A DNA stretch of 64,000 bases from a virus. Taxonomy: Duplodnaviria > Caudoviricetes. The translations under genes and the position numbers were made by a program. Each line of letters begins with the position of its first letter. The first letter of the stretch is position 1. Of this stretch, positions 5,303 to 21,720 are shown piece by piece. A model generated the notes under the pieces. The model saw only the letters and a program-made list of their open reading frames with translations. It did not search any database and was not told where the DNA came from. The DNA lies in IMG/VR virus record IMGVR_UViG_3300032221_000294, positions 35,521 through 99,520 of that record; one strand, written 5' to 3'.

Positions 5303-7519
5303 TCAAGAGAGGGCGAGGATGTAAGGAATTACGATGGCCAGGATCGACTTTCTAAACGCTTGGCCAGAGATCGTTCCGGTATTTTGATTGATAACTAGGT
5401 CTTCACCAACACGGAAGTCACCCAGTTGGTCAGTGCTGGTAACAGCAACTCGGCCCCCGTTAATCTGGATAACCTCGTTAGCTTGGATGGCAGTTCCGCC
5501 TGAGAATGGGATCGCAGTATTTATGTCGATTCCGCTCCCCACGTACTCCATACAGTGGGAGTTGGCGATGATTCGGCTAACACGCCAAAAATTGACTGTG
5601 TCCCCAGGTGAGGGGTTGTAAGGTAGATTCTCCAAGATGGCGATAGAAACAGTTCCACCTACACCTGTGAAAGTCTCGGTAACTCCCGCCACTGTGTAAT
5701 AAACTGGGTTCTTGACAGCAATTGCCGCTGCAGAAGCACCACCACCACCAGTAATTGAAACTGTGATTACATCCGTGTCTGTATAGTTTTGTCCCGAAGA
5801 GGCAACCTCAATACCAATCAACTGCCCGCCGTCAATAATTGCAATCCCTTGCGCGGCGATGGCGTTCGGCCCGGTGCCAATCGAAACGCTTACGGTAGGG
5901 AGGCTTGTATAACCACTACCGGGGTTAGTGATTTCGAATGAGCTAACATTATAGTACAAGTCACCAACCGTAATCACTTGTCCCACGTAAGGGACTTGTC
6001 CGGTTGTTAATGTATTGAGGGCGAAAACGCTGTTGTTGACGGTGGAACTCACCAGAAGTCCCGATTGTTCTAAAGGCCCGGTGCCATCTGCATACATTCC
6101 AAAGTTACCGAAGTCAGAGTTACTGTTTGTAACGCTAACGAGTCCCCCTGTCTCAGCTAAAACGGACTTATCCGCGCAGATTGTGAACATACTCACAACC
6201 TGACAGTAACCTCTGTTGTAAACTTTTACGCCCACTCCGTCAGGGTTGTATTGCGTAAAGCTGTCAAGAACCATACTCTTCAGTCCACCTGCCTTACTGC
6301 CGTCGACGTTCAACCCGATGCTGTTCTCTACGAAGTTTGTGCAGTTTTGAACGTAAGGACTCTGAGTGATTACCCCTGACCCGGTGGGCCAGTACGACAT
6401 AATTCCCTTCGTCTGAATGAGTTCCGTAGGATTTAAAGGGTTCGGTGTCTTAGTTACGGAGCCCAGGAAAGAGAAGTTTTGAACGTAGCAGCCGTTTAGA
6501 ACCTGGAAAAGGTCGTCGTCATTCAACAGGGTGATGGTTGTAGAGCGTAAATCCGCTCCAACAATCGAAATGTCCGGGAAAGGGAAGATTAGAGGGTTTT
6601 GCTCGTTGTAGTTACCCGAAGCAACTCGAATTTGAGTCCCAGCTGTGGCTAGTGCCAACGCTGCTTTAATCGTTTGTTTTGCCGTCTGAGGGCTGGTGCC
6701 GTCATTACTATTATCACCGTTTACATCCACCCACAAAGTGTTGGAAATCGGCGTGATTCCCCTCCAACGAGTTCCGTCGTAAACAAGAAGACCGGGGGCA
6801 TTGGGGTTCGAAGTGTCTAACCACTGCTCACCAACCGAATTTCCGTTAGACCCTCCGCTCCCTTCAACAGTGATTACGGGGGATACGGGGAATATACTGT
6901 AGTTCCCTGGCGACAAAACCGAAACTGAAGTAATCGACGCCCCTGAAGCTGCCGTAACTTCCAATGTTGCGGGAACCCCTGAACCACCGCTAACAATTAA
7001 AAAATCGCCAACAGTGTAACCCGAACCACCGAAAGAAATGGTAGCGGAGATTACACCGCCGGTCAGGTTAAAGGTTGCTCCTGAGCCGCTACCACCAGTC
7101 ACGTTTACGGGAGAAACCGGGAACGTAGTGTAGCTGCCCGCGTTAGTTACGTTTACGGAAGTGATCACCCCCGACGACACTGTGGCAACGGTGAGGATCG
7201 AGGAAGTCCCGGAACCGCCCGTGACAGTTAGAACGTCGTTAACTGCGTACCCTGTACCACCAGAACTAACTGAGGCACACGAAACGCTGCCCACCAGGTT
7301 TAATGCTGCACCAGAACCACCGGTGTTACCGTTAGGAGGCGTCGGACCAACTGCGGTTGGACCTACTTTAAACAGGTTATCAGCAGCATCCGCGAAAAAG
7401 AGTCCGGGTTCAAACTCGTTGATGTTTACTGCGGGTTGGCCTGAGAGCAGAAGAGCAGGGTTAGGTCTCTGTTGAAATGCTTGCGAACGTAGTAATTGTA
7501 TGGGGGTCGAATTAGTCAT
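5303..7519 (-). CDS. Tail fibre/spike protein with beta-helix region
   Basis: N-terminal RP...GQPAVN..EPGLFF; GGTGY..GD repeats; WVDVNGDNSNDG..P..AKQTIKAAL; SPYVQNCT. Confidence 0.75.
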   Translation of the reverse strand: MTNSTPIQLLRSQAFQQRPNPALLLSGQPAVNINEFEPGLFFADAADNLFKVGPTAVGPTPPNGNTGGSGAALNLVGSVSCASVSSGGTGYAVNDVLTVTGGSGTSSILTVATVSSGVITSVNVTNAGSYTTFPVSPVNVTGGSGSGATFNLTGGVISATISFGGSGYTVGDFLIVSGGSGVPATLEVTAASGASITSVSVLSPGNYSIFPVSPVITVEGSGGSNGNSVGEQWLDTSNPNAPGLLVYDGTRWRGITPISNTLWVDVNGDNSNDGTSPQTAKQTIKAALALATAGTQIRVASGNYNEQNPLIFPFPDISIVGADLRSTTITLLNDDDLFQVLNGCYVQNFSFLGSVTKTPNPLNPTELIQTKGIMSYWPTGSGVITQSPYVQNCTNFVENSIGLNVDGSKAGGLKSMVLDSFTQYNPDGVGVKVYNRGYCQVVSMFTICADKSVLAETGGLVSVTNSNSDFGNFGMYADGTGPLEQSGLLVSSTVNNSVFALNTLTTGQVPYVGQVITVGDLYYNVSSFEITNPGSGYTSLPTVSVSIGTGPNAIAAQGIAIIDGGQLIGIEVASSGQNYTDTDVITVSITGGGGASAAAIAVKNPVYYTVAGVTETFTGVGGTVSIAILENLPYNPSPGDTVNFWRVSRIIANSHCMEYVGSGIDINTAIPFSGGTAIQANEVIQINGGRVAVTSTDQLGDFRVGEDLVINQNTGTISGQAFRKSILAIVIPYILALS

Positions 7520-7578: not shown

Positions 7579-7962
7579 TTAGTCCAACGTAAGTTCGCCG
7601 GTAGTCGAATTCACGGCGAAACCGTCGCCTAGAAGAAGTAGACCCTGAGAAGTCTCAACGTAGTAGTCAAGCGTTCCTGCACCTGTGCCGACTTGGAAGC
7701 TGTTGCCGTTTACAACGCTAAGCCCATTTCCAATGTTGAAGTGACCCGTCGAGCTCGTAATTTGAGCAGTTGAAGCAGTTGGGTAAGAAGTTCCGGAACC
7801 TGTACGAAGAATTTGCCCGTCAGCACTAACGGAGATTCCTGCATCAGCGATTTTCATGCTCCAGTAAGGACCCTTAACGAGATACTCCTGTGGTCCGTTA
7901 GGAATTGTTGGGGAAGGGTTTGGAATAGGGTTGTTAAACGGGGGGGGAGTTGGTAAAGTCAT
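7579..7962 (-). CDS. Hypothetical virion protein
   Basis: GNGLSV-type short fibre repeats; GGGTAAAA upstream. Confidence 0.55.
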   Translation of the reverse strand: MTLPTPPPFNNPIPNPSPTIPNGPQEYLVKGPYWSMKIADAGISVSADGQILRTGSGTSYPTASTAQITSSTGHFNIGNGLSVVNGNSFQVGTGAGTLDYYVETSQGLLLLGDGFAVNSTTGELTLD

Positions 7963-8070
7963 GAGGACTCAAAGCAGCCTATAGGAGCTTTTACCCTTCA
8001 GTTTCCCGTAAGATATTTCCTCCTAGGGGACTTCCTTGTAATTCTGATCAAATTTATCTCTGGTCACAAG

Positions 8071-11000
8071 TCAGGGGTTAGAAAGCTGCTGATTTCCGAC
8101 GTTAATTTCCGGGTTCGGGTCAGTATAGAATCGACCTGTCAAAGCTTGGCGTTGAGGACCAAACAGGACAATCTCTCCACGGCTATTTACGCCAGTAACC
8201 GTCACTCTCCCACCCCAGAGAACTGTTGACTGGAAGTCTGCGGATAGTTTTCTAGAAAGATCGTTGTTTTGGTATTTTGGAAGTCCCCGAGAATAGTCGA
8301 GGTAGCCTGTAAATGCCCAGGTATGGGTATTCGCAATGATTGTGGACGGAGTGTTAAACTCAAGTGGCCACCTTTCTGTCACTAACGCGTAACCTTGCGA
8401 AGGGGCGAAGGGAAGGGAAGTGACGGAAAGAGCTCTTTCACCCCAGTACTTAGGCCCCAAGTAAGGGAGAATCTCTTCGTTAGAATAACCCATCACCTCA
8501 AAGAACCTGAGAACTGCTTGTTTCGTGTTCCCCCAAAGCGGGTCGTAGGCATCTGCGTTAGGGACTCGGTTAGTTTCACAAACCGTGAGAAGAGTTGCTG
8601 ACGGCCAGTTTTTAACTTCGGTAGAAGGGTCAGGATAATAACTGTTTAGCCTGTTCAGTCTGATAGCGCGCACGACGGAGCCCGTGATTTCAACAACTTG
8701 CAAGTACTCATAGTTGAACTCGTCAGACAGCAAGATAATCGAGACTTCCTCCGTAGGGTCGTTAATAACTGAAACATTCGCAACCGAGAACTCTATAATT
8801 GCTGGGCGGTATCTTCTTAGATCGTCTGCATCCAGGGGTGTCTGAACAATAGAAATTCCGCCTAATGTTGTGGTTGTTGCGGTAGTTGGGACATTCGTTA
8901 GGCAAATTCCCATACTGTCGGAGCCGTCATCCCCGTTAAAGTACGATTGAATGCTATAAGAAGTGTACGGATATGTCGACCCCCGGAAATAAGTATCACC
9001 TTCGGAGTAGATCTCTCCTTCCAGGTACACATCGTTGGCGAAGGTACCCTGGTAAGTGTTGCTAACAAGATCCTGGCGCTCAAGAACACTGGTGTCAACA
9101 AACGGCGAGCAGGACTCTACCGGTGCAACTTTATAGGGCCCAGCGCTCGGGCGGAAGGAAGTTGCTTCCCCGTAGTACAGATTCCCCCAGAAGTTATTTT
9201 CTGCTGCGTACCAGTTTCTTTGCTGGTAAGTTACATAAGACCCCGTGGAATTGTTAAATTCTTGAGTCCATGGTCTAGAATAGTCAGAAACAGTTGCCGT
9301 AAAGTAGTAATTAACGTTTTCGTTGCTGTCCCCGATAACGTAGTTGTATTGCGGCGATTCTGCGAGCCCAGCAGTAAAAACGCGGTCAACTGTGAAAATT
9401 CTTCCCCAGCCACCCAAGACGCCGGGGTCAAATTGAACGTTAGGCCGAAGTGTTCCGGGGTTAATCGCCTGGTTAATCTGGTTGAGCCGTAGAACCGAGC
9501 CGAGTTGTGGAGGAATAACAGTTGGGTAAGTGTTAGAAACTTTGAAGCTGTATACCCGATCAAATTCTTGACGGGGATCGTAGAATCTTCGCAGGTAGGG
9601 AACCTCGAGCTCTTCCGTCAATGCTGATAGCGGAATTGTGCTATCCGACGACCGAATTCGCAAAGTTGAGGTCAAACCACAAGACCCTGGCGTTGAAATA
9701 ACTGTGGGTCCACCGTCTGTTGCAAAGAAACCTCGATAAGTCAATCCTGTAGAAGGATTAGCAACCCACACTGCACTTCCTGGTTCCAGCGAGTAAGGAA
9801 GGATGTAACAAGGGGAAAACTCCGAGCTTAACTCAATTAGCTGAATACCGGGATCCAGAGGGTCTAACTCCACTGCAGTGATCCTGGCGCCGAGTGAAAG
9901 AATCTGCTTGTTTTCATTGGAGGTTGCCTGGGACTGTGTGAGTGCCAACGGGCGTTGAATCCCTTCGAACAGAAATCCTGTTTGGTTGGCGTCTGCACCG
10001 CCAACTCTGTTGATTCCCGTGAATCCTTCAGATTTAATTGCCACTGACCCGAAATTACTCGTGCTGTTTGTCAGCGATACGTAACCGCCGTTCAGAGCCC
10101 ACACACCTACAGCACATCCGATAGTGTAAATAGACTGAAGCTGAGCGTACGCACCGTCACGAACCCGGAACCCGAAGTGCCTGAAATCTTCCTCAATGTT
10201 TACAATTCCGATATTCTCATTGCTGTCGGTGACTAAGTTCTGATAGTAGAAACGGATGTTTTTAATCTTTGTTTTGTTGAGAAGGTCTAATTGAGCTTCA
10301 ACTGGTACGGAGTCGATTGACCCAGGGCGCTCATCAAGGGGGAGAGACAGCAATGTTGCCCTAGCCAATGACCACCATTTCTGCTCCGAAACGTTTGTTA
10401 CGGGGTTTAGGATCGTGGTGTAGATTTCATAGGCGGCTGGGTCGGTCTGCAAAGATACAGACGTGCATTCATTAGCGATTAACGACCTAAACCCTTCAAG
10501 CTGACTCCCAATAATCTCACCCCAACACATTCCGAAGTTTGAGCGAAGGTTGACACTATTGGCGTAGGCCGAGGAGTTCTTTGTTGTGTTGACCCCCAAG
10601 TTGTTGGGGTAGGGTGTATCTGTGGGAGCAACAATAACGTACTCAGCTTGGCTGACCAGCGCAGCTCCGTTGGTCACTTGGCCGCCAAAGAAATCAGGAA
10701 ACGCCCTTTGAACTTTGGTGTAGTAGTCTGATAGTTCCCCCACAGTTGCGTTCAAGCTGCCGCGTAATCTGTGGGCGGATCTTAGCTGGTTTTCAACGGT
10801 TAGTATAGTTGAAACGGTGCTCGTGACTATGGGGATTGCCGAATACTCAATGAAGATTGAACCCGGTGCAGTCTGAAGGTAGAAAGAGAACGTGTCGATT
10901 GGGTACGCGTAATAATTCCCGTCCCGGAAAGTTCCGGTCGTCTGATTAACTCTGGAAGAAAAAGTAACCGTTACTCGATCCTCAACTTCAAGACCGTGGG

Positions 11001-11931: not shown

Positions 11932-12093
11932 CTAAAGGTAGGCTCCGCCGATAATCGCGTCTTCGCTCACTTCACCCTTCTCTCGCAGCTTCATGGCCGC
12001 TTCAAGATACAGGTCTGCCTTTTCGCCCAGCTCCTGCCTGCGCTCCTTGTAACGTGACATCAGAGCGATGTACTTCTCGTCGTGTTTACTCAT
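11932..12093 (-). CDS. 53-aa protein coupled to the kinase gene (candidate inhibitor/immunity protein)
   Basis: Manual translation MSKHDEKYIALMSRYKERRQELGEKADLYLEAAMKLREKGEVSEDAIIGGAYL*; ATG overlaps the kinase TGA (TGATG). Confidence 0.7.
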   Translation of the reverse strand: MSKHDEKYIALMSRYKERRQELGEKADLYLEAAMKLREKGEVSEDAIIGGAYL

Positions 12094-13982
12094 CAAACCC
12101 CCTCGTAAAGAATCGAGATGTACTTTTGAGCCTGTTCATTAGTTAGTTTAGTCCAGACCCCCTGCTCGTAAGTCTCCATTGGCGAACGAATTCCGTGATC
12201 CATCACCGTGGCAATGTCGTCTTTGGAGAAACCATCCCGAAGCATCGCGAATTGAACGTCAGCTTTGTTTTGTTGAACTCTGGCGAGAACGGGAGCTTTT
12301 TCTTCGAGGTCTTTTCGTGCCCTTTCTGTTGACACGGGTAGAGCACCAGATTTCAATCTTGACTCGTAAATTTCGAGGAGTCGGCCAGCCGTCCCATCCC
12401 ATCGACGAAGTTGCCAGTCTCCTTGTCCCGCAGCACCCATACCTCTTGTTGCCGAACCACCTTGTGGAGGCATAAACACACCCATCGCTTCGGCCAAAGC
12501 GGCTTTTGGCGAGTCTTGAGCAAGACCCATGTCAACGAAACGGGCTTTACCTTTGCGGTCTACAAGAACGTTGTCGATGTGCATATCATTGTGAGCGATG
12601 CCCATCCGGTGAAGTTTTGCCCTAGCAACCCAATATGCGTCGGCAACTTTGACTCCGCCGATTTCTTTGTCGGGTGCTTTTGAACCGATAGGGCTTCCTG
12701 CAACCACGCTCATCGCCACGCGACCAATTTTCGTACCGGCGTTATACTGCGAGTCACCGTCAAGTTGAGCAGCAAGAAGTTTTGGCCCAAGGTCAACTTT
12801 TCCAAGACGGTCAATCAAGTCGGCTTCAATTTTACCGACTTCGCCCCTCTTGATGGCGTTTCCTTTGTTTGGCTCACGAAGAACGGTCCCGTAAGCACCT
12901 CTTCCGAGAAGTTTTGACCCCGACCCATAGGAATCTTCCCAGCGGTAAGACTTGCTTCCGAGCTCACGGGAAATCCCTTTGTTTATCATGTCACCGTCAT
13001 GATCGCGAGCGTCTTCACGAGCGTAACGAACGTTTCCAGTTGCTTTTGTTTGTGGGCCTTTAATCGCCTCTTCCACAACTTTGAGCCGATCAACCAGCTT
13101 GTTGCGAAGCGCACCCGGTTTTACCTTTTGAACTTGCGATTTTAAGTTATTCCGCAAATTCCAGGCTTCTCCGAGAAGTCCCTCTAAGTCACGTCCAACT
13201 TCCCTACGAGTTAGAGCACCAAGTCCGAGAACGGATTGAAGCTGTGCGACTTGTGATTTGATTTTGACTCGCCCACTATTGTCGTCAATCATCGAGATAT
13301 ATCTCGGCGATTCGCCCTTCAAGAGGCGTGAAATATCATCCATTAAATCCTCGTCGGCCACTGTTCTCTTTACGGGGAGAACCGTCCTTGTTCTTGCGCC
13401 TGGTGACTTATCAAGTTGCCGTGGTGGCAGAACTAACAAAGGCTTCTCGCTCGGGGTTTCTTTTCTGCGAGCTAACTCTCGGTCAATTCTATCTTTGGTA
13501 TCCTGTAACACCTCCTTTTTCCCTGCCGGTGCTACTGAGAGACCTTTTCGGAATTTAACAAGAGCACTCGTATCCCATGCTCCGTACAGCTCGTCGGGTT
13601 GATTTTTTGCGTCGACAGTGGGTTTTTCAAAGGCTCGTTTAAATACATCCCCTAAGTTTGTTTCCGCCTTCGGTGCAGCGGCACCCCTTGCCGGTATAAC
13701 ACCAGCAGCAACTAAACGTCGTTTCAGTTCCCGTGCATCCTCGCCTGCGCGAATGTTCCTGCCAAGTTCCTGACGAAATTCCTTCTTGATTTTTTCAAAT
13801 TGGGCGGCGCCACCGCGCTTTCCGCCCGCAGCAGCGGCTCGGTAGAGTTCAACAACCCCCACCTCATCTGAGGCTTTATTGAGAATGTTATTTACAGCTG
13901 TAGGGAAGTTAAGTCGGCAAGATTTTGCATTGCTGATGCAACCAGCCCCACACGCTTTACTGCGGCTGCACCTTTTTCTCAC
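12093..13982 (-). CDS. Ser/Thr protein kinase with N-terminal Cys4 module and basic linker
   Basis: LGRGAYGTV (Gly loop), AIK, HNDMHIDNVLV (catalytic loop), FVDMG (DFG equivalent); N-terminal RCSRSKACGAGCISNAKSC. Confidence 0.85.
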   Translation of the reverse strand: MRKRCSRSKACGAGCISNAKSCRLNFPTAVNNILNKASDEVGVVELYRAAAAGGKRGGAAQFEKIKKEFRQELGRNIRAGEDARELKRRLVAAGVIPARGAAAPKAETNLGDVFKRAFEKPTVDAKNQPDELYGAWDTSALVKFRKGLSVAPAGKKEVLQDTKDRIDRELARRKETPSEKPLLVLPPRQLDKSPGARTRTVLPVKRTVADEDLMDDISRLLKGESPRYISMIDDNSGRVKIKSQVAQLQSVLGLGALTRREVGRDLEGLLGEAWNLRNNLKSQVQKVKPGALRNKLVDRLKVVEEAIKGPQTKATGNVRYAREDARDHDGDMINKGISRELGSKSYRWEDSYGSGSKLLGRGAYGTVLREPNKGNAIKRGEVGKIEADLIDRLGKVDLGPKLLAAQLDGDSQYNAGTKIGRVAMSVVAGSPIGSKAPDKEIGGVKVADAYWVARAKLHRMGIAHNDMHIDNVLVDRKGKARFVDMGLAQDSPKAALAEAMGVFMPPQGGSATRGMGAAGQGDWQLRRWDGTAGRLLEIYESRLKSGALPVSTERARKDLEEKAPVLARVQQNKADVQFAMLRDGFSKDDIATVMDHGIRSPMETYEQGVWTKLTNEQAQKYISILYEGV

Positions 13983-14491
13983 TTTGCGCTCTCCCGGTAC
14001 TCTTGAAGTTTGGCTTCGAGCTCAGCGATACGGGATCCGACGGACTGAATATGCTCGGAATAGGAATCATCCTGGTTCATAGTCCGATTGTAATCATCCA
14101 TTTGCTTACGGCCAAGATCAAGAGTGGAAAGCTTCGCGTCGAGAGCTTCTTTCGCTTTAATCAGGTCGTGCATTTGCTTCATCTGGGCTTGCAGACCTTT
14201 GAAATTTCCACGCATACGGGAGGTGCGCATCTCGTCTTGAAGCGAGTCAATGCGCATATCAAGCGATTTCTCTTGCTCAGCAAGGCTATCGTATTCCCCA
14301 CCGTCACGAACGTTTTCGGGGAGAATCTCGCCAAAGCGAGAGTTGATCACAGACGTGTTCTCGGGCTCCATAACGGTTCCCCGAGCGTAATCTGTCGGTG
14401 TGTGGGAGTAATCAAGGATCTGATGCCCCCGCTCCGAATAAATTAAATAGGCTTGTTCGATAGCCTTTTCTGAAATGGAGTCTTTCCGCAT
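13979..14491 (-). CDS. Coiled-coil protein, putative internal head protein
   Basis: Heptad-rich; DYAR/SYSE/EYRE motifs; GGGTAAAA upstream. Confidence 0.6.
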   Translation of the reverse strand: MRKDSISEKAIEQAYLIYSERGHQILDYSHTPTDYARGTVMEPENTSVINSRFGEILPENVRDGGEYDSLAEQEKSLDMRIDSLQDEMRTSRMRGNFKGLQAQMKQMHDLIKAKEALDAKLSTLDLGRKQMDDYNRTMNQDDSYSEHIQSVGSRIAELEAKLQEYRESAK

Positions 14492-14522
14492 GTCGAAAAG
14501 GAGACTTATACGTGATTTTACC

Positions 14523-15029
14523 CTATCTTGTGCCCTCTAGGGTCTTGCGGCCGATCTCGTTGATGGCCTGTTGCCGAGCCGAGCCGCTGGCATTTGGATT
14601 CGCTAAGGCCGCTGCTGATTGAGCAGGGGCTGCTGGTTGAACGTTTTTCGGTCGTGGCGATTGACTTGGTTTTACGGGTTTTGGACCCACTTTCTTTTCA
14701 CCGGCGACTGAACCCCATTCAACAAGAACGGGTTTGCCACCTTTTACGGCCCAACCCATCCGCTTGCCGTTCACCATTACGGGTTTGTTGCTCTTAACGT
14801 CCGAGCCCTGCTTCTTGGCTTCAGCTTCACCCGCTTCCTCTTGTTTGGTTTTCTTGCTGGAGTCGAAGTCCTTTTCACCGGTGCCGCCGCCAACTTTGCG
14901 GCAGACGCCGAATACCATCTTCTCGCCTTCTCCACAGCCTTGGCCGTCAGCGAAGTTCCAGTCGATAATTGTGTAGTGAACACCTTCAATGAGGTGGTCA
15001 ACTGAGGGAAAATTGAAATTGCTTTGCAT
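14523..15029 (-). CDS. Putative internal head protein
   Basis: Likely start MQSNFNF; NFAD followed by CGEGEKMVFGVCRK; basic remainder. Confidence 0.55.
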   Translation of the reverse strand: MQSNFNFPSVDHLIEGVHYTIIDWNFADGQGCGEGEKMVFGVCRKVGGGTGEKDFDSSKKTKQEEAGEAEAKKQGSDVKSNKPVMVNGKRMGWAVKGGKPVLVEWGSVAGEKKVGPKPVKPSQSPRPKNVQPAAPAQSAAALANPNASGSARQQAINEIGRKTLEGTR

Positions 15030-15034
15030 GGGGA

Positions 15035-15346
15035 TCACCACTTAACTTTGTTGGCCCAGTAGGAACCAGAGGAAGGACCTTTCGCGATGTTTTTTGCGTG
15101 CCGCGCTTTGAAAGCTTCGCGTCGCGCCTTGTAAGACTCCGACTCACCTTCTTTTTTCGGGGACCCTTTGACGCCAGCTTGACCGAAACGAATCAATTTT
15201 TCCTGACCGTCGTAACACGCTTTGACAACGTGGCTGTGTCCGCCTTGTGTGTCCGCCTGAGGCTTGTTACAAGCCAAGTCTGCCTTTTCGGCGTAGTCTC
15301 TACGAAACCGCTCAAGAACTCCCTCAAAGAAAGACCCCCACATCAA
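15035..15346 (-). CDS. Small basic phage protein (DUF6321-like), putative internal head protein
   Basis: KLIRFGQ.G...RR.AFKARH...YWANKVKW pattern, recalled from phage head-associated proteins. Confidence 0.55.
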   Translation of the reverse strand: MMWGSFFEGVLERFRRDYAEKADLACNKPQADTQGGHSHVVKACYDGQEKLIRFGQAGVKGSPKKEGESESYKARREAFKARHAKNIAKGPSSGSYWANKVKW

Positions 15347-15900
15347 CCTTCCTCCCCGAAGCGAATGAAATCACCGACGCTTGCCAGGGCGACTCCAGCG
15401 TTTGCAATCTTTGTAGCAGCCCACGGAGGCAGATTGTCTTCTTCGTCGAGCATATCGAGCATTATTTCGATCTTTTCTTGCGCAACACGAAGTTGGGTGA
15501 TGATCATCCCGCCATTATTTTCACTGGACTGAAAAATTTCTGAGTAGGAGTTGTCGTTCGCTGAAGCATGCATCGCAAGTTGACCGTTTTTGTTAGCTGC
15601 CCTTTTAATGACTTCCATGCGGGGCATCCGAATCGGAACTCCTTCGTTCATCTGTGGGTTCTTTTCGTCACCTTCGCCTGGCTCTTCGGGCAGAAAGTTC
15701 GGTGTCATTTCTGCTGTGGCGATGTCACCTTCCCCATGTTTTGACTCGAGAGGAACGCAGTTTGGAACTGTTCGTCCGCCTTTCTTCTTCACGCCGACGG
15801 CGTGGTAGCCCTTCCAGCAGGCTTTCTTCAAGCACTCACGAGAATCTTCGGAGAACCCGAAACCTTCGAGTCTCTCCCAATCGTAGTTGTTAGGGTTCAT
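15343..15900 (-). CDS. Two-module putative internal head protein
   Basis: GFSE then CWKGY..VG.KKKGGRTVPNCVP; SYSE then GM..TQL...LDMLDEEDNLPPW..TKI, modules recalled from T4-like cyanophage head proteins. Confidence 0.55.
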   Translation of the reverse strand: MNPNNYDWERLEGFGFSEDSRECLKKACWKGYHAVGVKKKGGRTVPNCVPLESKHGEGDIATAEMTPNFLPEEPGEGDEKNPQMNEGVPIRMPRMEVIKRAANKNGQLAMHASANDNSYSEIFQSSENNGGMIITQLRVAQEKIEIMLDMLDEEDNLPPWAATKIANAGVALASVGDFIRFGEEG

Positions 15901-16162
15901 GATCTGTGATCCTCCGGTGTAGTAGATCTTTCTGAATGTCTTCGACCTTTTCCGACAACCGAATATGATCTTCCCGAAGAGTGTACTTGATTGGCAGGTC
16001 CGTTCTCAGGTTATCGAGAACCGACTCCATCTTCTCCATATGGCGGATAATAGTTCCAAAACGGTCGTCGATTCGCTTTCCATTTCGTTCAAGAACCCAG
16101 CCAATTCCGCTAACGGAGGTGACAATAGACGCTAGAATACTTAAGATAGCTACGGGTTCCAT
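15890..16162 (-). CDS. Single-TM coiled-coil membrane protein (holin-like?)
   Basis: Hydrophobic N-terminus MEPVAILSILASIVTSVSGIGWVL followed by coiled coil. Confidence 0.5.
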   Translation of the reverse strand: MEPVAILSILASIVTSVSGIGWVLERNGKRIDDRFGTIIRHMEKMESVLDNLRTDLPIKYTLREDHIRLSEKVEDIQKDLLHRRITDHEP

Positions 16163-16163
16163 A

Positions 16164-16871
16164 CTACTCCGGCAAACCTGATTGACCTGAAGCAAGCCGA
16201 TCTTTCACGGATTGCGGTAAGCCCGACTCCCAGCCGTTCTTCTTCGCGATGCGAATGATGCTAGCCATAATTTTGCGAGGATTTTTTCCTCGCCCTACCG
16301 AAGACCAGGCGGCAGCAACGTCTTCCGGGCTCGAGATTGGAAAAGACATATCAGGGCCGGCAAATTCACCCTTGACTGCCCCGGCTTTGAGCTCTTCGCG
16401 CTTTCCGGTGCTCCACTCGCGGTACTCGGCTGCTTTGCGTTTCTTGTCACGGCAAACTGGGCAAGATCCTCCGCATTCGCATTCGGCCATTGCGAAAGGT
16501 TGCGCAATTGCGAGAAGCTCGGTGTCCTGAGAATCGCCCTCGGCGAACCCGTACTCGGCCCTTTTCATTTCCTTAAACGAAGCCATCCGAGATTTCTTGC
16601 GGTCGAAAATCTCTTTCATGGCCTTATTGCCATCGCAATTTTCGTTGTAATTTCGGTTGACGAGACTAGTACGCTTTTCGCGATTTGCAGCGTTCAACTT
16701 TAGAACACTTTCGTTGTGGTGAGACATTCCACCGGTAATGTCGGGAGACCATTTCTTACCGGAGGCGTTCATTTCTTTCAACCTGTCTACGCTAATTGCG
16801 TTCGAGGCGTTGATGTTACCGCCTACACCAGGAAGCGAAACGTCGGAGAAATCTAGACGGGATCCGTACAT
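16164..16871 (-). CDS. Putative internal head protein (C-terminal DUF6582-like domain)
   Basis: DFSD, GFAE and EYRE motifs; CECGGSCPVC; FAGPDMSFPI.SPEDV.AAW..VGR domain. Confidence 0.55.
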   Translation of the reverse strand: MYGSRLDFSDVSLPGVGGNINASNAISVDRLKEMNASGKKWSPDITGGMSHHNESVLKLNAANREKRTSLVNRNYNENCDGNKAMKEIFDRKKSRMASFKEMKRAEYGFAEGDSQDTELLAIAQPFAMAECECGGSCPVCRDKKRKAAEYREWSTGKREELKAGAVKGEFAGPDMSFPISSPEDVAAAWSSVGRGKNPRKIMASIIRIAKKNGWESGLPQSVKDRLASGQSGLPE

Positions 16872-16908
16872 ATAGGAGGCAGTGGCAATACTTTCCTTTT
16901 ACCCTTTA

Positions 16909-17226
16909 TTAGGGACTCTCCGATTCGTTGGTGGTTTTGCGACGACGAGTTACTTGCTCGACCTCTGCACCGGCAGCAGGTTCTGCGGGAACTAAAAGGG
17001 CCAGCAGGGTAGTTAATGCCAGTTTGCCAGTTTCGGCGAAGCTTGAGTTCGCCTGAGCGCAAACTAAGTTTGTTTTCTCCAGTTCGGCTGGGCTGCTTGA
17101 AAGTTTGAAACAGGTGGCAAACTGTGCGCCAGTGGACGCGAATTGAACTATGAAGATAGCAACGAGGCTTCGAATCAGAAAGCGGCGCTCGTTGAAGCTA
17201 CTCGTAGTCTTCGTCAGCAGGCTCAT
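16909..17226 (-). CDS. Small two-TM membrane protein
   Basis: Two hydrophobic segments and a basic C-terminal tail. Confidence 0.55.
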   Translation of the reverse strand: MSLLTKTTSSFNERRFLIRSLVAIFIVQFASTGAQFATCFKLSSSPAELEKTNLVCAQANSSFAETGKLALTTLLALLVPAEPAAGAEVEQVTRRRKTTNESESP

Positions 17227-17560
17227 TGTCCTCTTCCATTGAGAGTTCGCTTAGAATTTCATTGACAAGGGCGTCAACCTCGTCTTCAGTTAGTTCCTCT
17301 TCCTCGTCGGACTCTTCCTCCTCGTAGTAGGATTCCGGTTGGAAGGGTTGCTTCAGATCGTCATCGGGACCTTTTCCGCTCGGATAGCGCCAAAGGCCAG
17401 TATGCTCGATCCAAGGGGAAGTGTTTGAGATTTCGCCAGCAGGGAGACCGGTTCGGGTGTCCATATCCTGGTCTTCCGGAGTCATCAGTTGAGCGGCATA
17501 CGCAGCGCGGAATGCTTCAACGGCGTCCATGTCGAAATCGCCACCAATTCTGTTGGTCAT
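17198..17560 (-). CDS. Acidic hypothetical protein
   Basis: GGDFDMDAVEAFRAAYA leader-like N-terminus; Glu-rich C-terminus; GGGTAAAA upstream. Confidence 0.6.
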   Translation of the reverse strand: MTNRIGGDFDMDAVEAFRAAYAAQLMTPEDQDMDTRTGLPAGEISNTSPWIEHTGLWRYPSGKGPDDDLKQPFQPESYYEEEESDEEEELTEDEVDALVNEILSELSMEEDNEPADEDYE

Positions 17561-17598
17561 TTGTTAGTTGTAATGGAACTTGAAGAAATTTTACCCGC

Positions 17599-18321
17599 TC
17601 AGGCCGCCCCGAAAAACCGGTAATTCCCCTCGTCGTCCTCGTAAATAGATCCCTCGTAAGCGTCTGTCCCCCTAGTAATTGCCTCGACGTCTTTGTCGGT
17701 CCACCCCAACACTTTCTTCAGAACTTTTTTTGGTACCGTAGCTGCAAGATCATCGTAGGAGGCGTTTTTGTCAACGTATTTCTGTAATTTCGGGTGCTCC
17801 ATAACCCTTTCGATGGCCTCGTCAACTCTTGATGGTAATCCAGCCTTGGCGAATTCGCCGAGTGCTTCTTGCTTTCTCTTCTTTCCCGTATCCTTGGTCA
17901 CACCCCCTGGCCCGTAAGTGTTATTTTTATGCCCGTATAGACTTGACTTGTACGCGTCAGCTTCTCTGCGTCTTTCCCTTTCACCGGGCGTCATATTCCC
18001 CCTGGTATCGCCCTTCTTATAAGGTTCACGCGCACGACCAGCAGCGTTCGCTGCGAGTTGGTCATACATGGCTTTTCTTTCAGGTGTTTGATTCTTTTTC
18101 TGACGTGCCAGTTTCGCTGCTCTTTCCGCTACTTTGGCTGCTGCGCCTTTGGTGGATTCTACACCTTTGCGGCATTGCCCTCCCGTGCCGTAGATAGACC
18201 CGTCGGGTCGCATACATCGGGTGAAGTCGTAGCTCTCTCCCTCGGAGAAATCCGCAGATTGTGTTTGTGAAACCATCTCCGAATACTGGAGGAGAGCCTT
18301 TTCTGAGAAAGAACCTAGCAT
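17599..18321 (-). CDS. Putative internal head protein, paralog A
   Basis: GSFSE..L..YSE...QTQSADFSEG..YDFTRC.RPDGS.YGTGG.CRKG.E leader shared with 19140..19835. Confidence 0.7.
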   Translation of the reverse strand: MLGSFSEKALLQYSEMVSQTQSADFSEGESYDFTRCMRPDGSIYGTGGQCRKGVESTKGAAAKVAERAAKLARQKKNQTPERKAMYDQLAANAAGRAREPYKKGDTRGNMTPGERERRREADAYKSSLYGHKNNTYGPGGVTKDTGKKRKQEALGEFAKAGLPSRVDEAIERVMEHPKLQKYVDKNASYDDLAATVPKKVLKKVLGWTDKDVEAITRGTDAYEGSIYEDDEGNYRFFGAA

Positions 18322-18352
18322 GATACTAAAGTAATCTGCTCAAGTTTTACCC

Positions 18353-18799
18353 TTAGCGTTTCTTGATCTTGCCCGAGATATCTTGCCCCATCTTGCTATT
18401 GCCCATGAGCTTTTCTTCGTACTCTTTAACTTCCTTTTTGACATCTGCCTTGAGTTTACCTTCCTGAAGCATTTTTTCCTTCTTAGACTCAAGGATTTCA
18501 GGGTCGTAGGGGGCATTCTTCTCTCGCTCTTTCTTCGCCTTTTCCTTGCCCTTCTGCATTGTTTTCGCAGTTTGCTCACGCTTGGCAAGTTCTTCTTTGT
18601 GAACGAGTTTCCCTTCTTCGTCAAACTTGTGGTCTTTTGGAAGCTCGGGGGGAGTGTACTCTTGGTGAATTTCCTGCGCCAGGCGATCAAGAAGTTGGTC
18701 GTACGAGTCACGCAGGCGCCGTCTGCAAACGCCGGCAGCAGCCACAGTCATCGGGCCACAGGGAATCCTGTGCTGAGTAATTTCTTCGAGTGCGTTCAT
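18353..18799 (-). CDS. Lys/Glu-rich protein, putative internal head protein
   Basis: Likely start MNALEE; CGPMTVAAAGVCRR motif. Confidence 0.55.
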   Translation of the reverse strand: MNALEEITQHRIPCGPMTVAAAGVCRRRLRDSYDQLLDRLAQEIHQEYTPPELPKDHKFDEEGKLVHKEELAKREQTAKTMQKGKEKAKKEREKNAPYDPEILESKKEKMLQEGKLKADVKKEVKEYEEKLMGNSKMGQDISGKIKKR

Positions 18800-18800
18800 G

Positions 18801-19136
18801 TTAGGCTCCTTTTCTTTGGCGAATGCGACCGTCGTTGTGCTCGTCGTAGTGAACTCCCTTCCTCTTTTCCTTGCGGGGGTTTGAGTCCTGACGATTTGTT
18901 TCCCGCATCGACTGAACCATTGTGTCGCGCATGTTGCGAAGTTGCTCACGCGGCAGAGTGCAATGATCGCTGTCACGATAGGAACGATACCAGCGGCAAA
19001 CTTCCGACGGGTCGTCAGCCTGGAGCATCATATTCCACACCCCGAGTGCTTGCGCATCGGCTAGGGTGCCAGGCTTGAGTTTGGCCTCAATTTCGTGCCG
19101 CTCGGGGCGATTGAATCGGGTGTCTTTGCGCATCAC
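18801..19136 (-). CDS. Hypothetical protein
   Basis: 111-aa ORF tiling the cluster. Confidence 0.6.
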   Translation of the reverse strand: MMRKDTRFNRPERHEIEAKLKPGTLADAQALGVWNMMLQADDPSEVCRWYRSYRDSDHCTLPREQLRNMRDTMVQSMRETNRQDSNPRKEKRKGVHYDEHNDGRIRQRKGA

Positions 19137-19139
19137 TGA

Positions 19140-19835
19140 TCAGAGTTTTCCTATTTGCCATTTAATACCGACGTCACTAGTCCACGGATGCACGACTGTA
19201 TATCCGTCTTTGGTTTTCTTTACTTGAAAATTATCGCCTCCTTGCTTCTTATTAAGAGCGTTAGCAAGCTCTTGAGCTTTGTTTTTGGGGAAAATTAAAG
19301 AATCGGACGAACGCTCTGACGAAGTTCCTTTTGAACTCTTCTGTCCCTTACCCGCAAGCTGAGCCAGAGCATTTTTAGCATAGCGGGAAAAGGAACCTTT
19401 GGCCCCATCTTCTTGATAACGATCTGAAGCATTATCGAGAGCACTAACGAGTTTTTGTTTTTGTTCGGGGTTTAATTTTAGGCCCAGTGCTTTTTCTAAC
19501 TTGGGTGCGAGTGTCTCCCCGGCATACCCAGGGGTGGAATCTGACTCTCCGTCCTCAAAGGCCATAAACGCTTTGTCCCAAGCCTTATACAAACCATCTA
19601 CGATTTTGGCAGCATCTTTCTTTGGTCCACCCGACGCTCTCTTCGCTTTTTCTTCAATTTCTTTAGCGCCTTCCGTGCCCTTTCGGCATTTACCCCCAGT
19701 GCCATACGCCGACCCGTCGGGTCTCACGCAACGGGTGAAGTCGTAGGTATATCCTTCAGAGAAATCCGCAGCTTGAGTCTGAGCCGCAAGTTCTGCGAAG
19801 TGACGCAAAGCGTCTTCAGAAAAATGACCGTTCAT
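19140..19835 (-). CDS. Putative internal head protein, paralog B
   Basis: Start MNGHFSE, 22 nt after GGGTAAAA; same leader as 17599..18321 with an unrelated C-terminus. Confidence 0.7.
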   Translation of the reverse strand: MNGHFSEDALRHFAELAAQTQAADFSEGYTYDFTRCVRPDGSAYGTGGKCRKGTEGAKEIEEKAKRASGGPKKDAAKIVDGLYKAWDKAFMAFEDGESDSTPGYAGETLAPKLEKALGLKLNPEQKQKLVSALDNASDRYQEDGAKGSFSRYAKNALAQLAGKGQKSSKGTSSERSSDSLIFPKNKAQELANALNKKQGGDNFQVKKTKDGYTVVHPWTSDVGIKWQIGKL

Positions 19836-19872
19836 GGCTGTAAAATAATATACAAGTTTTACCCCCTTGGTG

Positions 19873-21720
19873 TTACAAATCTGCGATTTGTTGAAGTACC
19901 TCGTCTTGAATGTCTTTGATCTTCGGCGCAAGGAAATCAATTAACCCTGTCCTCGTTGAATACTGCGTTTCTCGAACTCTATTTCCTTTGTATTTTTCTT
20001 CGTTTAAGTCGAGAAGTTTCCTCTGAGCCCCGCTCAAAATTGAGCCCATCTTCATCAAACCCCCGTTATCTCCCTTTTCCTGGAGCTCAGCGACTTTATC
20101 CGCTAGAGCTTTACCGACGGACGCGCCTCCTACATCTTTTCCGTACCAGTACAGAGGTTTGGGCACAGAACGTAAACTCCCCTCCTTGGCTGACTGGATT
20201 CCAATAGCAACGGTTCGTGACGAATCTGTCCACGCGGAGACAACTTTACCCATTAGATTTGCCCGGTCTCCCGCGTTAAGCTCATTAGTGGGGATAAGGG
20301 CAATAGACGCTAACGCTTTTTGAGGATCTAGAATCTTGTCTAAGATGTCATCCCCGATTGTTTTCTTTGCTGAGTTTATTTCTTCCCGTTTTTCGTGGAA
20401 AAGTTTACCGTCTTCCGTGAGTTTTCCGTTTCCGTCAAAAGTTATCATCCGTGGCTTACCCGAGGTCTTTGAGGTGTTGGTGTTGAACCAACCTGCGGTG
20501 TTAGTTGTTAGCAGGTAATCCGGACTGCCTTCCCCTTTCCCTCGGTTTATTCGAGAGTTTGTTAACGACCAGTTGTTCCCGATATTGGCATTTGCACCTG
20601 CGACCCCCGCTGGTATCAAGTGCTCTAAGTCCACGCTCAACAAATTCAGTTTCTCCCCCGTGTATACGTCCTTGAATCCTGACTCCATAGCGATCTTCAT
20701 AATTAAGAAAGATTTTGCCTTATCCTCCTCTGCTTTTGACATCTTCTTCCCCGAGGGAATTACGTCTCCCTTCGGAGTTACAGATCTGTAGGATCCAGGA
20801 ATTTCTGAACTTCCCGCACTCTTCAGATAGGTGAAAACTTGGGGGGGCATCAGACCCATCATAAAATGGACCTCTGAGTCTTTGACGTCCTGATTTCTGT
20901 ACCATTTTGCGAAAGGTTCTAGTGCCTTGGAAAATTCTTCAGGGTTCTTATATTTACCTGTCTTATAGTTGTCATAGACACTCGTAAGTTCTTTAAATTT
21001 GTCTTGACGCTCTTTCGAGGCCATTCGTTCTATGCCCTCGTTAGAAACAACTGGGGCTACATCTTTCCTCCCGTATAAGACGTCAAAAGCCTGACTCACC
21101 ATGTCCCGCATTTTTTGCCTGCGCTCTTTAGGGTCGGGGTAATCTTTGGTTAAGCCGTTGATCCCCTCCCGAAGAAAAGAAGTCCTTTCTTTCAACTCAG
21201 TTTGAACTTTCCCCGTTCTAAATTCTTTTGGCAGGGTGTCTTCCGCCAGTTTTCCTTTCACAAGCGAGTTAGAGAAACCTGTGTATTGTTTAAATCGTTT
21301 TGCGGCTTCAGCGGTGGTCAAGTTTCCTTGAGCAATTTCTGATTTCAAGTAATTTCGTACTTTAGTGACTTCTCCTGAAATTTCTGCAGGTAACTGCAGG
21401 ATGCAGTCGTTGCGGTAGAAAATGCAGGAAGCCCCACAAGATTTACCTTTCTTACACCGGTCACGTTTTGCGGAGAAGCTTTTTCTTTGAGCTGCCGCAT
21501 TCATTGCGCTCTCTTTCTTCGCTTCTGTGATCACTTTCTTTCCCCCGTCAGACGTCTTTTTAGGGGACCCACCTGTTTGAGGGGAAGCCGCTGGTTTACC
21601 GGGCAGAGGTGAAGATTCACCTACAATCCCTTGTCTTTGCCCAAGGCGCTCTACTTTTGCATCATCCCCTTGCATATTGCGGGAGTCTGCAAAATCAAAC
21701 CAGCGATACTTACTTCCCAT
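19873..21720 (-). CDS. Large basic protein with Cys4 module and HNH nuclease domain
   Basis: RCKKGKSCGASCIFYRNDC; DVYTG...DLEHLIP...NNWSLTNSRINRGKG (HNH). Confidence 0.7.
   Translation of the reverse strand: MGSKYRWFDFADSRNMQGDDAKVERLGQRQGIVGESSPLPGKPAASPQTGGSPKKTSDGGKKVITEAKKESAMNAAAQRKSFSAKRDRCKKGKSCGASCIFYRNDCILQLPAEISGEVTKVRNYLKSEIAQGNLTTAEAAKRFKQYTGFSNSLVKGKLAEDTLPKEFRTGKVQTELKERTSFLREGINGLTKDYPDPKERRQKMRDMVSQAFDVLYGRKDVAPVVSNEGIERMASKERQDKFKELTSVYDNYKTGKYKNPEEFSKALEPFAKWYRNQDVKDSEVHFMMGLMPPQVFTYLKSAGSSEIPGSYRSVTPKGDVIPSGKKMSKAEEDKAKSFLIMKIAMESGFKDVYTGEKLNLLSVDLEHLIPAGVAGANANIGNNWSLTNSRINRGKGEGSPDYLLTTNTAGWFNTNTSKTSGKPRMITFDGNGKLTEDGKLFHEKREEINSAKKTIGDDILDKILDPQKALASIALIPTNELNAGDRANLMGKVVSAWTDSSRTVAIGIQSAKEGSLRSVPKPLYWYGKDVGGASVGKALADKVAELQEKGDNGGLMKMGSILSGAQRKLLDLNEEKYKGNRVRETQYSTRTGLIDFLAPKIKDIQDEVLQQIADL

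Follow-up and report, generated by a model that had tools for sequence, protein, structure and literature searches.

The stretch of viral DNA analysed here (the window) comprises 64,000 nucleotides, bases 35521-99520 of the 99.5-kb IMG/VR virus record IMGVR_UViG_3300032221_000294 (Duplodnaviria, Caudoviricetes; CheckV completeness 46%) from a cyanobacterial virus, and it encodes two large proteins that share a small N-terminal module with four cysteines (the Cys4 module) ahead of different predicted enzymes, that is, a protein kinase in one and an HNH nuclease in the other. The record contains tail fibre, baseplate, terminase, head-tail adaptor and head-protease genes, and its closest cultured relative is Synechococcus phage S-CBWM1 (Aokuangvirus), with which the large terminase shares 59% identity; a megablast comparison of the module-block region with cultured phages gave no nucleotide match. 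Both module genes belong to a minus-strand gene run at 12-22 kb of the window, flanked by PhoH and terminase (TerL) genes and by a gene for a 1270-amino-acid (aa) tail fibre, and thus lie between TerL/PhoH and the tail fibres (Table 1). The kinase open reading frame (ORF) begins with a GTG codon that overlaps the stop of the gene upstream (13979-13982).

Table 1 Module-bearing proteins of the window and their parts (positions in the window; residues of the respective protein)
Feature	Position	Strand	Description
629-aa protein	12093..13982	-	N-terminal Cys4 module, ~310-aa charged linker, protein-kinase-like domain (predicted)
Cys4 module copy 2	13863..13982	-	Residues 1-40; Cys5, 11, 15, 22 = 13917-13970
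Kinase core (predicted)	12498..12920	-	Residues ~355-495; motifs read from translation
615-aa protein	19873..21720	-	Disordered leader, Cys4 module, helical region, Cas9-type HNH nuclease domain (predicted)
N-terminal leader	21469..21720	-	Residues 1-84, low complexity, predicted disordered
Cys4 module copy 1	21358..21477	-	Residues 82-121; Cys89, 95, 99, 106 = 21403-21456
HNH (beta-beta-alpha-metal) core (predicted)	20521..20670	-	Residues ~351-400; family alignment and profile matches

The 629-aa protein opens with M-R-K-R-C-S-R-S-K-A-C-G-A-G-C-I-S-N-A-K-S-C-R-L-N-F-P, and residues 88-111 of the 615-aa protein, directly behind S-F-S-A, read R-C-K-K-G-K-S-C-G-A-S-C-I-F-Y-R-N-D-C-I-L-Q-L-P. 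An earlier note on this DNA, made from the sequence alone, had pointed to the identical cysteine spacing of these two stretches and had described each as followed by a helix and then by unrelated sequence. Both stretches are where that note placed them, and the remainder of the two proteins is indeed unrelated: the sole significant BLASTP segment between them is the module itself (E = 3e-6; residues 2-52 against 86-140), all segments outside it having E > 0.8. A helix follows immediately in the AlphaFold model of the 615-aa protein (residues 112-130). A strict pattern (C-x3-[KR]-x-CG-x2-C-x5-7-C), run on all six frames of the record, returned only three matches, each close to where a long open frame begins; copy three, beyond the window at G000:C1:7608-7661 (minus strand), heads a kinase-like ORF of 274-300 aa, and the two kinases of the record have both module and kinase core in common.

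Alignment of 41 distinct copies gives the layout of the module as a run of K/R residues, the core C-x2-G-K-x-C-G-x2-C-I-x5-C, a phi-phi-[DE]-[LF]-P segment and a short helix. The C, G, K, C, G, C, I and C of the core are invariant or nearly so, and a further conserved K stands ~14 residues past the last cysteine; at ~40 residues, the module is longer than the 24-residue unit delineated in the earlier note. Its four invariant cysteines fall within 18 residues at a spacing of 5/3/6, unlike the usual pair of CxxC knuckles. Pfam at E ≤ 10 matched no model to five isolated modules, NCBIfam named nothing over the module region of whole module-bearing proteins, no PDB chain matched the module profile in a sequence search, and a query of the ESM Atlas with the module gave no usable match; Fer2_BFD, which appeared weakly for one copy (E = 0.024), was judged a chance C-G-x-x-C match. 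Modelled alone by AlphaFold, the module forms a hairpin and a helix with a predicted local distance difference test score (pLDDT 65) too low to support a fold search, and within the 615-aa protein its pLDDT is 37-64. We consider the module to be best explained as an autonomous mini-domain of ~40 residues.

Behind the module and its linker, the translation of the 629-aa protein contains the canonical motifs of a protein kinase, namely a G-loop (G-R-G-A-Y-G-T-V), the lysine of A-I-K, a catalytic loop (H-N-D-M-H-I-D-N) and D-M-G. Pfam Pkinase matches residues 456-493 below its gathering score (E = 3.5e-5), PHROG family phrog_18305 ('kinase') matches residues 359-493, the NCBIfam matches are of the Bud32/RIO type, and residues 357-488 align with the second kinase of the record. 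Taken together, these agree with the kinase assignment made earlier, and the cargo (that is, the sequence behind the module) is predicted to adopt a protein-kinase-like fold.

In the 615-aa protein, the module is preceded by a leader whose start, W-x-[DN]-F-x-D-S-R-N...VER, is conserved and common to HOU61_gp023 of S-CBWM1. AlphaFold gives residues 1-94 a pLDDT below 50 and most of the cargo (residues 170-615) a pLDDT of 80-95. The candidate nuclease core follows the pattern D-x-Y ... D-x-E-H-x-x-P ... N-W-x-L-T-x-S-x-x-N-R-G-K, with D351, H367 and N383 invariant across 23 aligned family members (alignment A4). When the family profile was compared with PDB sequences, the isolated HNH domain of SpCas9 (6o56_A; E = 1.1e-7) came ahead of numerous Cas9 chains, and no chains other than those of Cas9 were matched. 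NCBIfam Cas9d (E = 1.8e-5) and Pfam HNH_4, which matched a C-terminal fragment over profile positions 1-53 of 54 below the curated cut-off (E = 0.004), gave weaker support, and a single-sequence Pfam scan of the whole 615-aa protein was empty. Foldseek with the whole multi-domain model returned no significant match, Cas9 HNH chains appearing only among weak rows, so the assignment, which upholds that of the earlier note, rests on sequence profiles; by these, the cargo is predicted to be a Cas9-type HNH nuclease domain. Such a domain is an unusual relative for a protein from a phage structural region.

To define the spread of the module, a profile hidden Markov model (HMM) built from 41 modules was run exhaustively against 1.84 billion protein representatives (50% identity clusters), which yielded 629 clusters at E ≤ 1e-3, of which 91 also passed E ≤ 1e-10; a word-indexed homologue search gave close orthologues only, and no close relatives of two module proteins (P0128 and P0116) were found in IMG/VR. 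With few exceptions, the module in the best 150 of the 629 clusters begins no further than ~90 residues into the protein. The 135 representatives from these 150 that have at least 80 residues behind the module fall into 18 cargo groups (87 kinase-like proteins, or ~64% of the representatives, 16 HNH-like proteins, 11 proteins of ~560 aa whose type is unknown, and the remainder in 15 small groups). The cargos other than kinases are mostly dark to Pfam; a sub-threshold match (E ~0.004) of ATLF (anthrax lethal factor N/C-terminal domain family) to the 299-aa cargo at locus L028 and to P0092 was not relied on. In a few giant proteins (CL131 gp048, P0122 and P0128), three to four copies are internal; proteins of 1495 and 1787 aa, for example, have three and four copies, with alpha/beta-hydrolase domains of the lipase/esterase type between them. 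The polymorphic cargo family suspected from the two window proteins is thus recovered by profile search, with a near-constant N-terminal module, and tabulation of the fused C-terminal domains, as the earlier note had suggested, gave several unrelated ones rather than one that is invariant. The module is a large, real and uncatalogued family that is N-terminal and has swappable cargo.

Module genes occur in the structural or late regions of at least three phage lineages, with 3-10 copies per genome clustered in the structural region, so that neither a location mainly outside head or late contexts nor a single fused domain describes the family, varied in cargo as it is despite the prevalence of kinases. 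A first scan of IMG/VR gave 42 loci with 53 module ORFs, nearly all S-CBWM1-like and with the gene order of the window. A module gene starts no more than 400 bases downstream of PhoH in 11 of the 23 loci that contain PhoH, and at another four the two genes are neighbours but have a wider gap between them or PhoH inverted. The slot behind PhoH in S-CBWM1-like contigs is occupied by an HNH-type protein in most cases and by an unrelated 299-aa module protein at L028 and L029, and one locus (L034) carries five tandem module-kinases in 7.5 kb. S-CBWM1 itself has five copies (gp106, HOU61_gp023, and RIO-like, ChoK-like and APH-like kinases); gp106 is the HNH-type gene adjoining PhoH, and HOU61_gp023 is a second HNH-type paralogue beside the major head protein gene, with the same leader, module and HNH-type cargo as the 615-aa protein of the window. 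The annotated starts of the RIO-like and ChoK-like kinases of S-CBWM1 lie downstream of the module, and in-frame stretches upstream (M-S-K-R-C-... at L004 ~10411, NC_048106.1 ~70374-70463; M-G-K-N-C-... at L016 ~5837-5932, NC_048106.1 117836-117931) suggest that both proteins truly start earlier than annotated.

With a degenerate DNA pattern for the core, the matches listed alone numbered more than 120. At L083, from a different lineage, the order is TerL, a module gene, portal, a MuF-like 'minor head protein and DNA pilot', two module genes, a neck protein, head protease, a structural protein and the major head protein; at L157, a portal-like gene is followed by two module genes and a MuF-like gene. 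The L157 genome (154 kb, 98% complete) has ten module matches, nine of them at 45.8-65.5 kb, within 20 kb of the portal/DUF2213 region, and a complete genome of 279 kb has five. In one case, the module is part of the portal itself: L140:1685-4066 (plus strand) encodes a portal protein of the lambda family (Phage_portal_2, E = 1e-107, residues 22-360) whose 430-residue C-terminal extension bears the module at residue 521 of 794. A hydrophobic, membrane-like segment stands soon after the module at L147, L154 and L157.

Aphanizomenon siphovirus CL131 has five module copies, a single one in ORF047 and the other four in ORF048 (1811 aa), which also contains several alpha/beta-hydrolase nucleophile regions; both genes are directly upstream of the tape measure gene. 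Tandem mass spectrometry coupled to liquid chromatography (LC-MS/MS) of virions purified on caesium chloride (CsCl) identified 23 virion proteins, among them ORF047 with 14 peptides, and detected ORF048 with 105 peptides, 175 spectrum matches and 54.6% coverage, the highest score among the matches listed (PMC6293099, Table S5). These data are the only verified experimental evidence that module proteins travel in particles. The trafficking or docking function put forward in the earlier note is upheld to this extent, namely for both module proteins of another lineage; the role of the module itself in that journey is our inference.

The pattern scan also returned a second group of proteins (at L091, L093, L119, L066, L115 and ~25 other loci; P0192-P0311), which are small, have a signal-peptide-like start and end in CC-K-x-C-x-K-G-K-A-C-G-[DN]-S-C-I-x5-C-x4-G-C-A-C-[DN]-G, that is, with eight cysteines; in one secreted SNase, a four-cysteine form stands right behind the signal peptide. 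A search from one of the small proteins gave 347 proteins of this unnamed family from Pseudomonadota and others, many on chromosomal contigs (Salinicola, Alcanivorax, Celeribacter and others) and a few fused to SNase, LysM or SH3_3. Neither Pfam nor NCBIfam has a model for the eight-cysteine domain, and a profile search of PDB sequences gave nothing. The invariant core of the phage module, C-x2-G-K-x-C-G-x2-C-I-x5-C, is identical in the bacterial domain, being intact (as C-x2-GK-x-CG-x2-CI-x5-C) in 112 of 120 members among the matches listed, and a profile-profile comparison aligned the two over 23 columns (probability 97%, E = 3e-11). As the bacterial alignment for this comparison was gathered with the pattern itself, we regard the core count as the fairer evidence. 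The bacterial domain differs in its four extra cysteines, in its C-terminal position within small proteins with a signal-peptide-like start and in its chromosomal location; an uncharged N-terminal segment is present in 93% of the listed bacterial members as opposed to 2% of the phage proteins, 98% of which lack a signal-peptide-like segment. Across 185,579 species-representative genomes of bacteria and archaea, the strict phage-type motif had no confirmed match, in a scan that was limited by its pattern and missed the looser eight-cysteine family. Judging from the shared motif, the phage module resembles this extracellular bacterial domain reduced to its four-cysteine core. Given that the bacterial relatives bear signal peptides, disulfides are to be expected in them, and the same core suggests disulfides in the module; synthesis of the phage proteins in the cytoplasm suggests instead a metal site there, most likely for zinc, the other option named in the earlier note.

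On the basis of its N-terminal position on unrelated cargos, its clustering with structural genes in unrelated phages and the virion data of CL131, we lean towards reading the module as a loading tag for host-directed enzymes carried by the virion. In such a scenario, the tag would sit at the N-terminus of enzymes made late in infection (kinases, the Cas9-type HNH nuclease, alpha/beta-hydrolase lipases or esterases and many unknown domains) and would hold them on or in the assembling particle. Packed in the virion, the tagged enzymes would next exit the cell and, together with the DNA, pass into a new host, where the kinases may re-programme host proteins and the nuclease may attack the DNA of the host or of a competitor. 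A more specific form of this idea, which we offer tentatively and consider doubtful, is that the module is a loading handle independent of MuF that is read by a conserved feature of HK97-type heads, or by the packaged DNA, across unrelated myoviruses and siphoviruses; such a handle may also include a redox or metal switch that is locked in the particle outside the cell and released in the reducing cytoplasm.

Several observations weigh against a loading tag. The CL131 data concern whole proteins, so loading by the module as such goes beyond them, and packaging and ejection of the kinase and nuclease of the window would be extrapolated from the CL131 lineage. A partner gene conserved across lineages was sought and none was found; DUF2213 and the MuF-like phrog_220, present in CL131-like genomes, are absent from the record of the window and from S-CBWM1. 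The label 'virion structural protein' on HOU61_gp023 is a record annotation whose basis could not be checked. The multi-copy giants are odd for an address tag, since one per polypeptide should suffice unless the protein is cut into units. AlphaFold confidence on the module is low both alone and in context. Finally, a bacterial domain that is secreted and has no connection with virions is built on this core motif too, and therefore the fold is neither intrinsically capsid-docking nor specific to phages.

This bacterial relationship also feeds the alternatives. As fusions to staphylococcal-type nucleases occur among the bacterial relatives, a nuclease is among the cargos of the window, and the module is strongly basic (a K/R run before the first cysteine and K-G-K in the core), it could be a metal-binding knuckle that binds nucleic acid and tethers enzymes to packaged or host DNA, virion presence being a by-product; the location of the module in the C-terminal part of the L140 portal, a region assumed to face the packaged DNA, would fit. 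We nevertheless think this unlikely, because it is not apparent why the lipase/esterase cargos and many of the kinases should have to be tethered to DNA, searches of Pfam, NCBIfam and PDB profiles matched the module to no nucleic-acid-binding family, and terminase-driven packaging should strip DNA-bound proteins at the portal channel, so that DNA binding alone does not explain loading.

Less plausible again is that the role of the module is purely to stabilise: it would be a mini-domain knotted by metal or disulfides and derived from the extracellular bacterial domain, would address nothing and would have spread by lineage-specific shuffling and expansion of paralogues. The core shared with a family in which a signal-peptide-like start predominates (93% among the matches listed), the profile-profile match, the ~64% of phage representatives that are paralogous kinases and the multiple internal copies in giant proteins are all in keeping with it, yet a passive stabiliser is not expected at a fixed N-terminus, split from its cargo by long, disordered, charged linkers, and the near-N-terminal position and structural context are kept across at least 18 unrelated cargo groups and at least three lineages with different head genes. 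Least of all do we expect the module to direct ejected proteins to the host envelope (periplasm or membrane), an oxidising setting where its disulfides could form and it would help to open or cross the cell wall: the extracellular relatives, the lipase/esterase cargo of tail-region giants encoded beside the tape measure gene and the hydrophobic segment past the module in some lineages (L147, L154 and L157) speak for such a destination, but kinase and HNH cargos need substrates of the cytoplasm (ATP and DNA), and the helix after the module in both window proteins is amphipathic, not hydrophobic.

Other genes in and near the module block have features of their own. Two paralogous basic proteins (17599-18321 and 19140-19940, both minus strand) have a different N-terminal element in common, G-x-F-S-E-x-A-L ... 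D-F-S-E-G-x-Y-D-F-T-R-C-x-R-P-D-G-S-x-Y-G-T-G-G-x-C-R-K-G, with a two-cysteine motif; a further relative occurs upstream in the same record (seen as L052/L055 matches), and the element looks like a second shared tag within the module gene block. The 185-aa product of 15343-15900 (minus strand) contains C-L-K-K-A-C-W-K-G-Y-H-A-V-G-V-K-K-K-G-G-R-T-V-P-N-C-V-P, a short stretch that alone matches five PHROG families of unassigned function (phrog_4359, 9737, 727 and others) and is thus another small cysteine motif common to phage proteins. The head maturation protease of the window (43856-46255, minus strand; 799 aa) matches phrog_976 on residues 3-349 and has a C-terminal extension of ~450 residues beyond this match. 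Outside the window, the gene directly upstream of the third module-kinase (L003:1611-2342, minus strand; G000:C1 ~7712-8443) encodes a 243-aa protein with a putative cysteine-peptidase-like look (Y-Y-S-Q-R-D-N ... C-F-S-S-S-C-A-M), and the S-CBWM1 gene in the matching position is annotated 'putative peptidoglycan-binding protein'.

Phages carry enzymes into the host, as exemplified by T4 Alt, the N4 RNA polymerase and MuF-fused toxins, and the few loading devices known so far come from work on a handful of phages. The Cys4 module adds a compact and easily recognised candidate for a further device of this kind, common in cyanophages of freshwater, estuaries and the sea. As a loading tag, it would flag a large set of Pfam-dark proteins as candidate cargo delivered at infection, and the delivered set would include batteries of up to five tandem kinases together with a Cas9-type HNH nuclease. 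Should the handle be real as well, any protein given the 40-residue tag would ride into particles and reach the host, which would provide a practical means of loading proteins into phage particles. The tie to the secreted eight-cysteine domain is a starting point for finding what the fold binds.

Literature searches found no published description of this module, and three known systems invite comparison. The capsid-targeting sequence of T4 is N-terminal on IPI-III and Alt, is a cysteine-free stretch of ~10 residues and is cleaved off by the prohead protease. Like it, the module is a short N-terminal element on otherwise unrelated proteins, which in T4 are loaded into the head and injected and include host-modifying enzymes; it differs in being a structured Cys4 unit with no sequence similarity to the T4 element, and module proteins of the kinase type begin at the module. 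Alt is a packaged enzyme (PMC5512222). MuF polymorphic toxins and MuF/portal-effector fusions (Mu gp30/SPP1 gp7; Iyer et al. 2017, PMC5512222) likewise combine a constant N-terminal carrier with interchangeable C-terminal enzymes, are encoded beside portal and terminase and have been proposed to be packaged in the head and delivered with the DNA. A variable effector behind a constant N-terminus is also what we find (18 cargo clusters, with a swap at L028/L029), a head-morphogenesis location near portal or terminase is seen at L083 and L157 and, beside TerL/PhoH, in the window, and the L140 relative is a direct portal fusion. However, the carrier here has ~40 residues and four cysteines as opposed to ~110 residues or more for the MuF domain, which neither Pfam nor PHROG matched on the two window proteins and 40 other module proteins; the module coexists with a separate MuF-like gene at L083, at L157 and in CL131, and no MuF-like phrog_220 gene was found in the record of the window or in S-CBWM1. 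Polyvalent proteins, which are giant, virion-associated and equipped with several effector domains that include kinases (PMC5512222), resemble CL131 gp048, P0122 and P0128, whereas most module proteins, and each of the two in the window, have a single cargo; the kinases of polyvalent proteins are described as a truncated clade (PMC5512222), in contrast, by description only, to the Bud32/RIO-like matches of the module kinases. As neither 'cysteine' nor 'cyanophage' occurs in the text of that survey (PMC5512222), the module is not among its domains. The Cys4 module therefore belongs to neither the MuF fusions, the T4 capsid-targeting sequences nor the polyvalent proteins, and is best regarded as a new module of the carrier type, uncatalogued so far, that serves a strategy already known.

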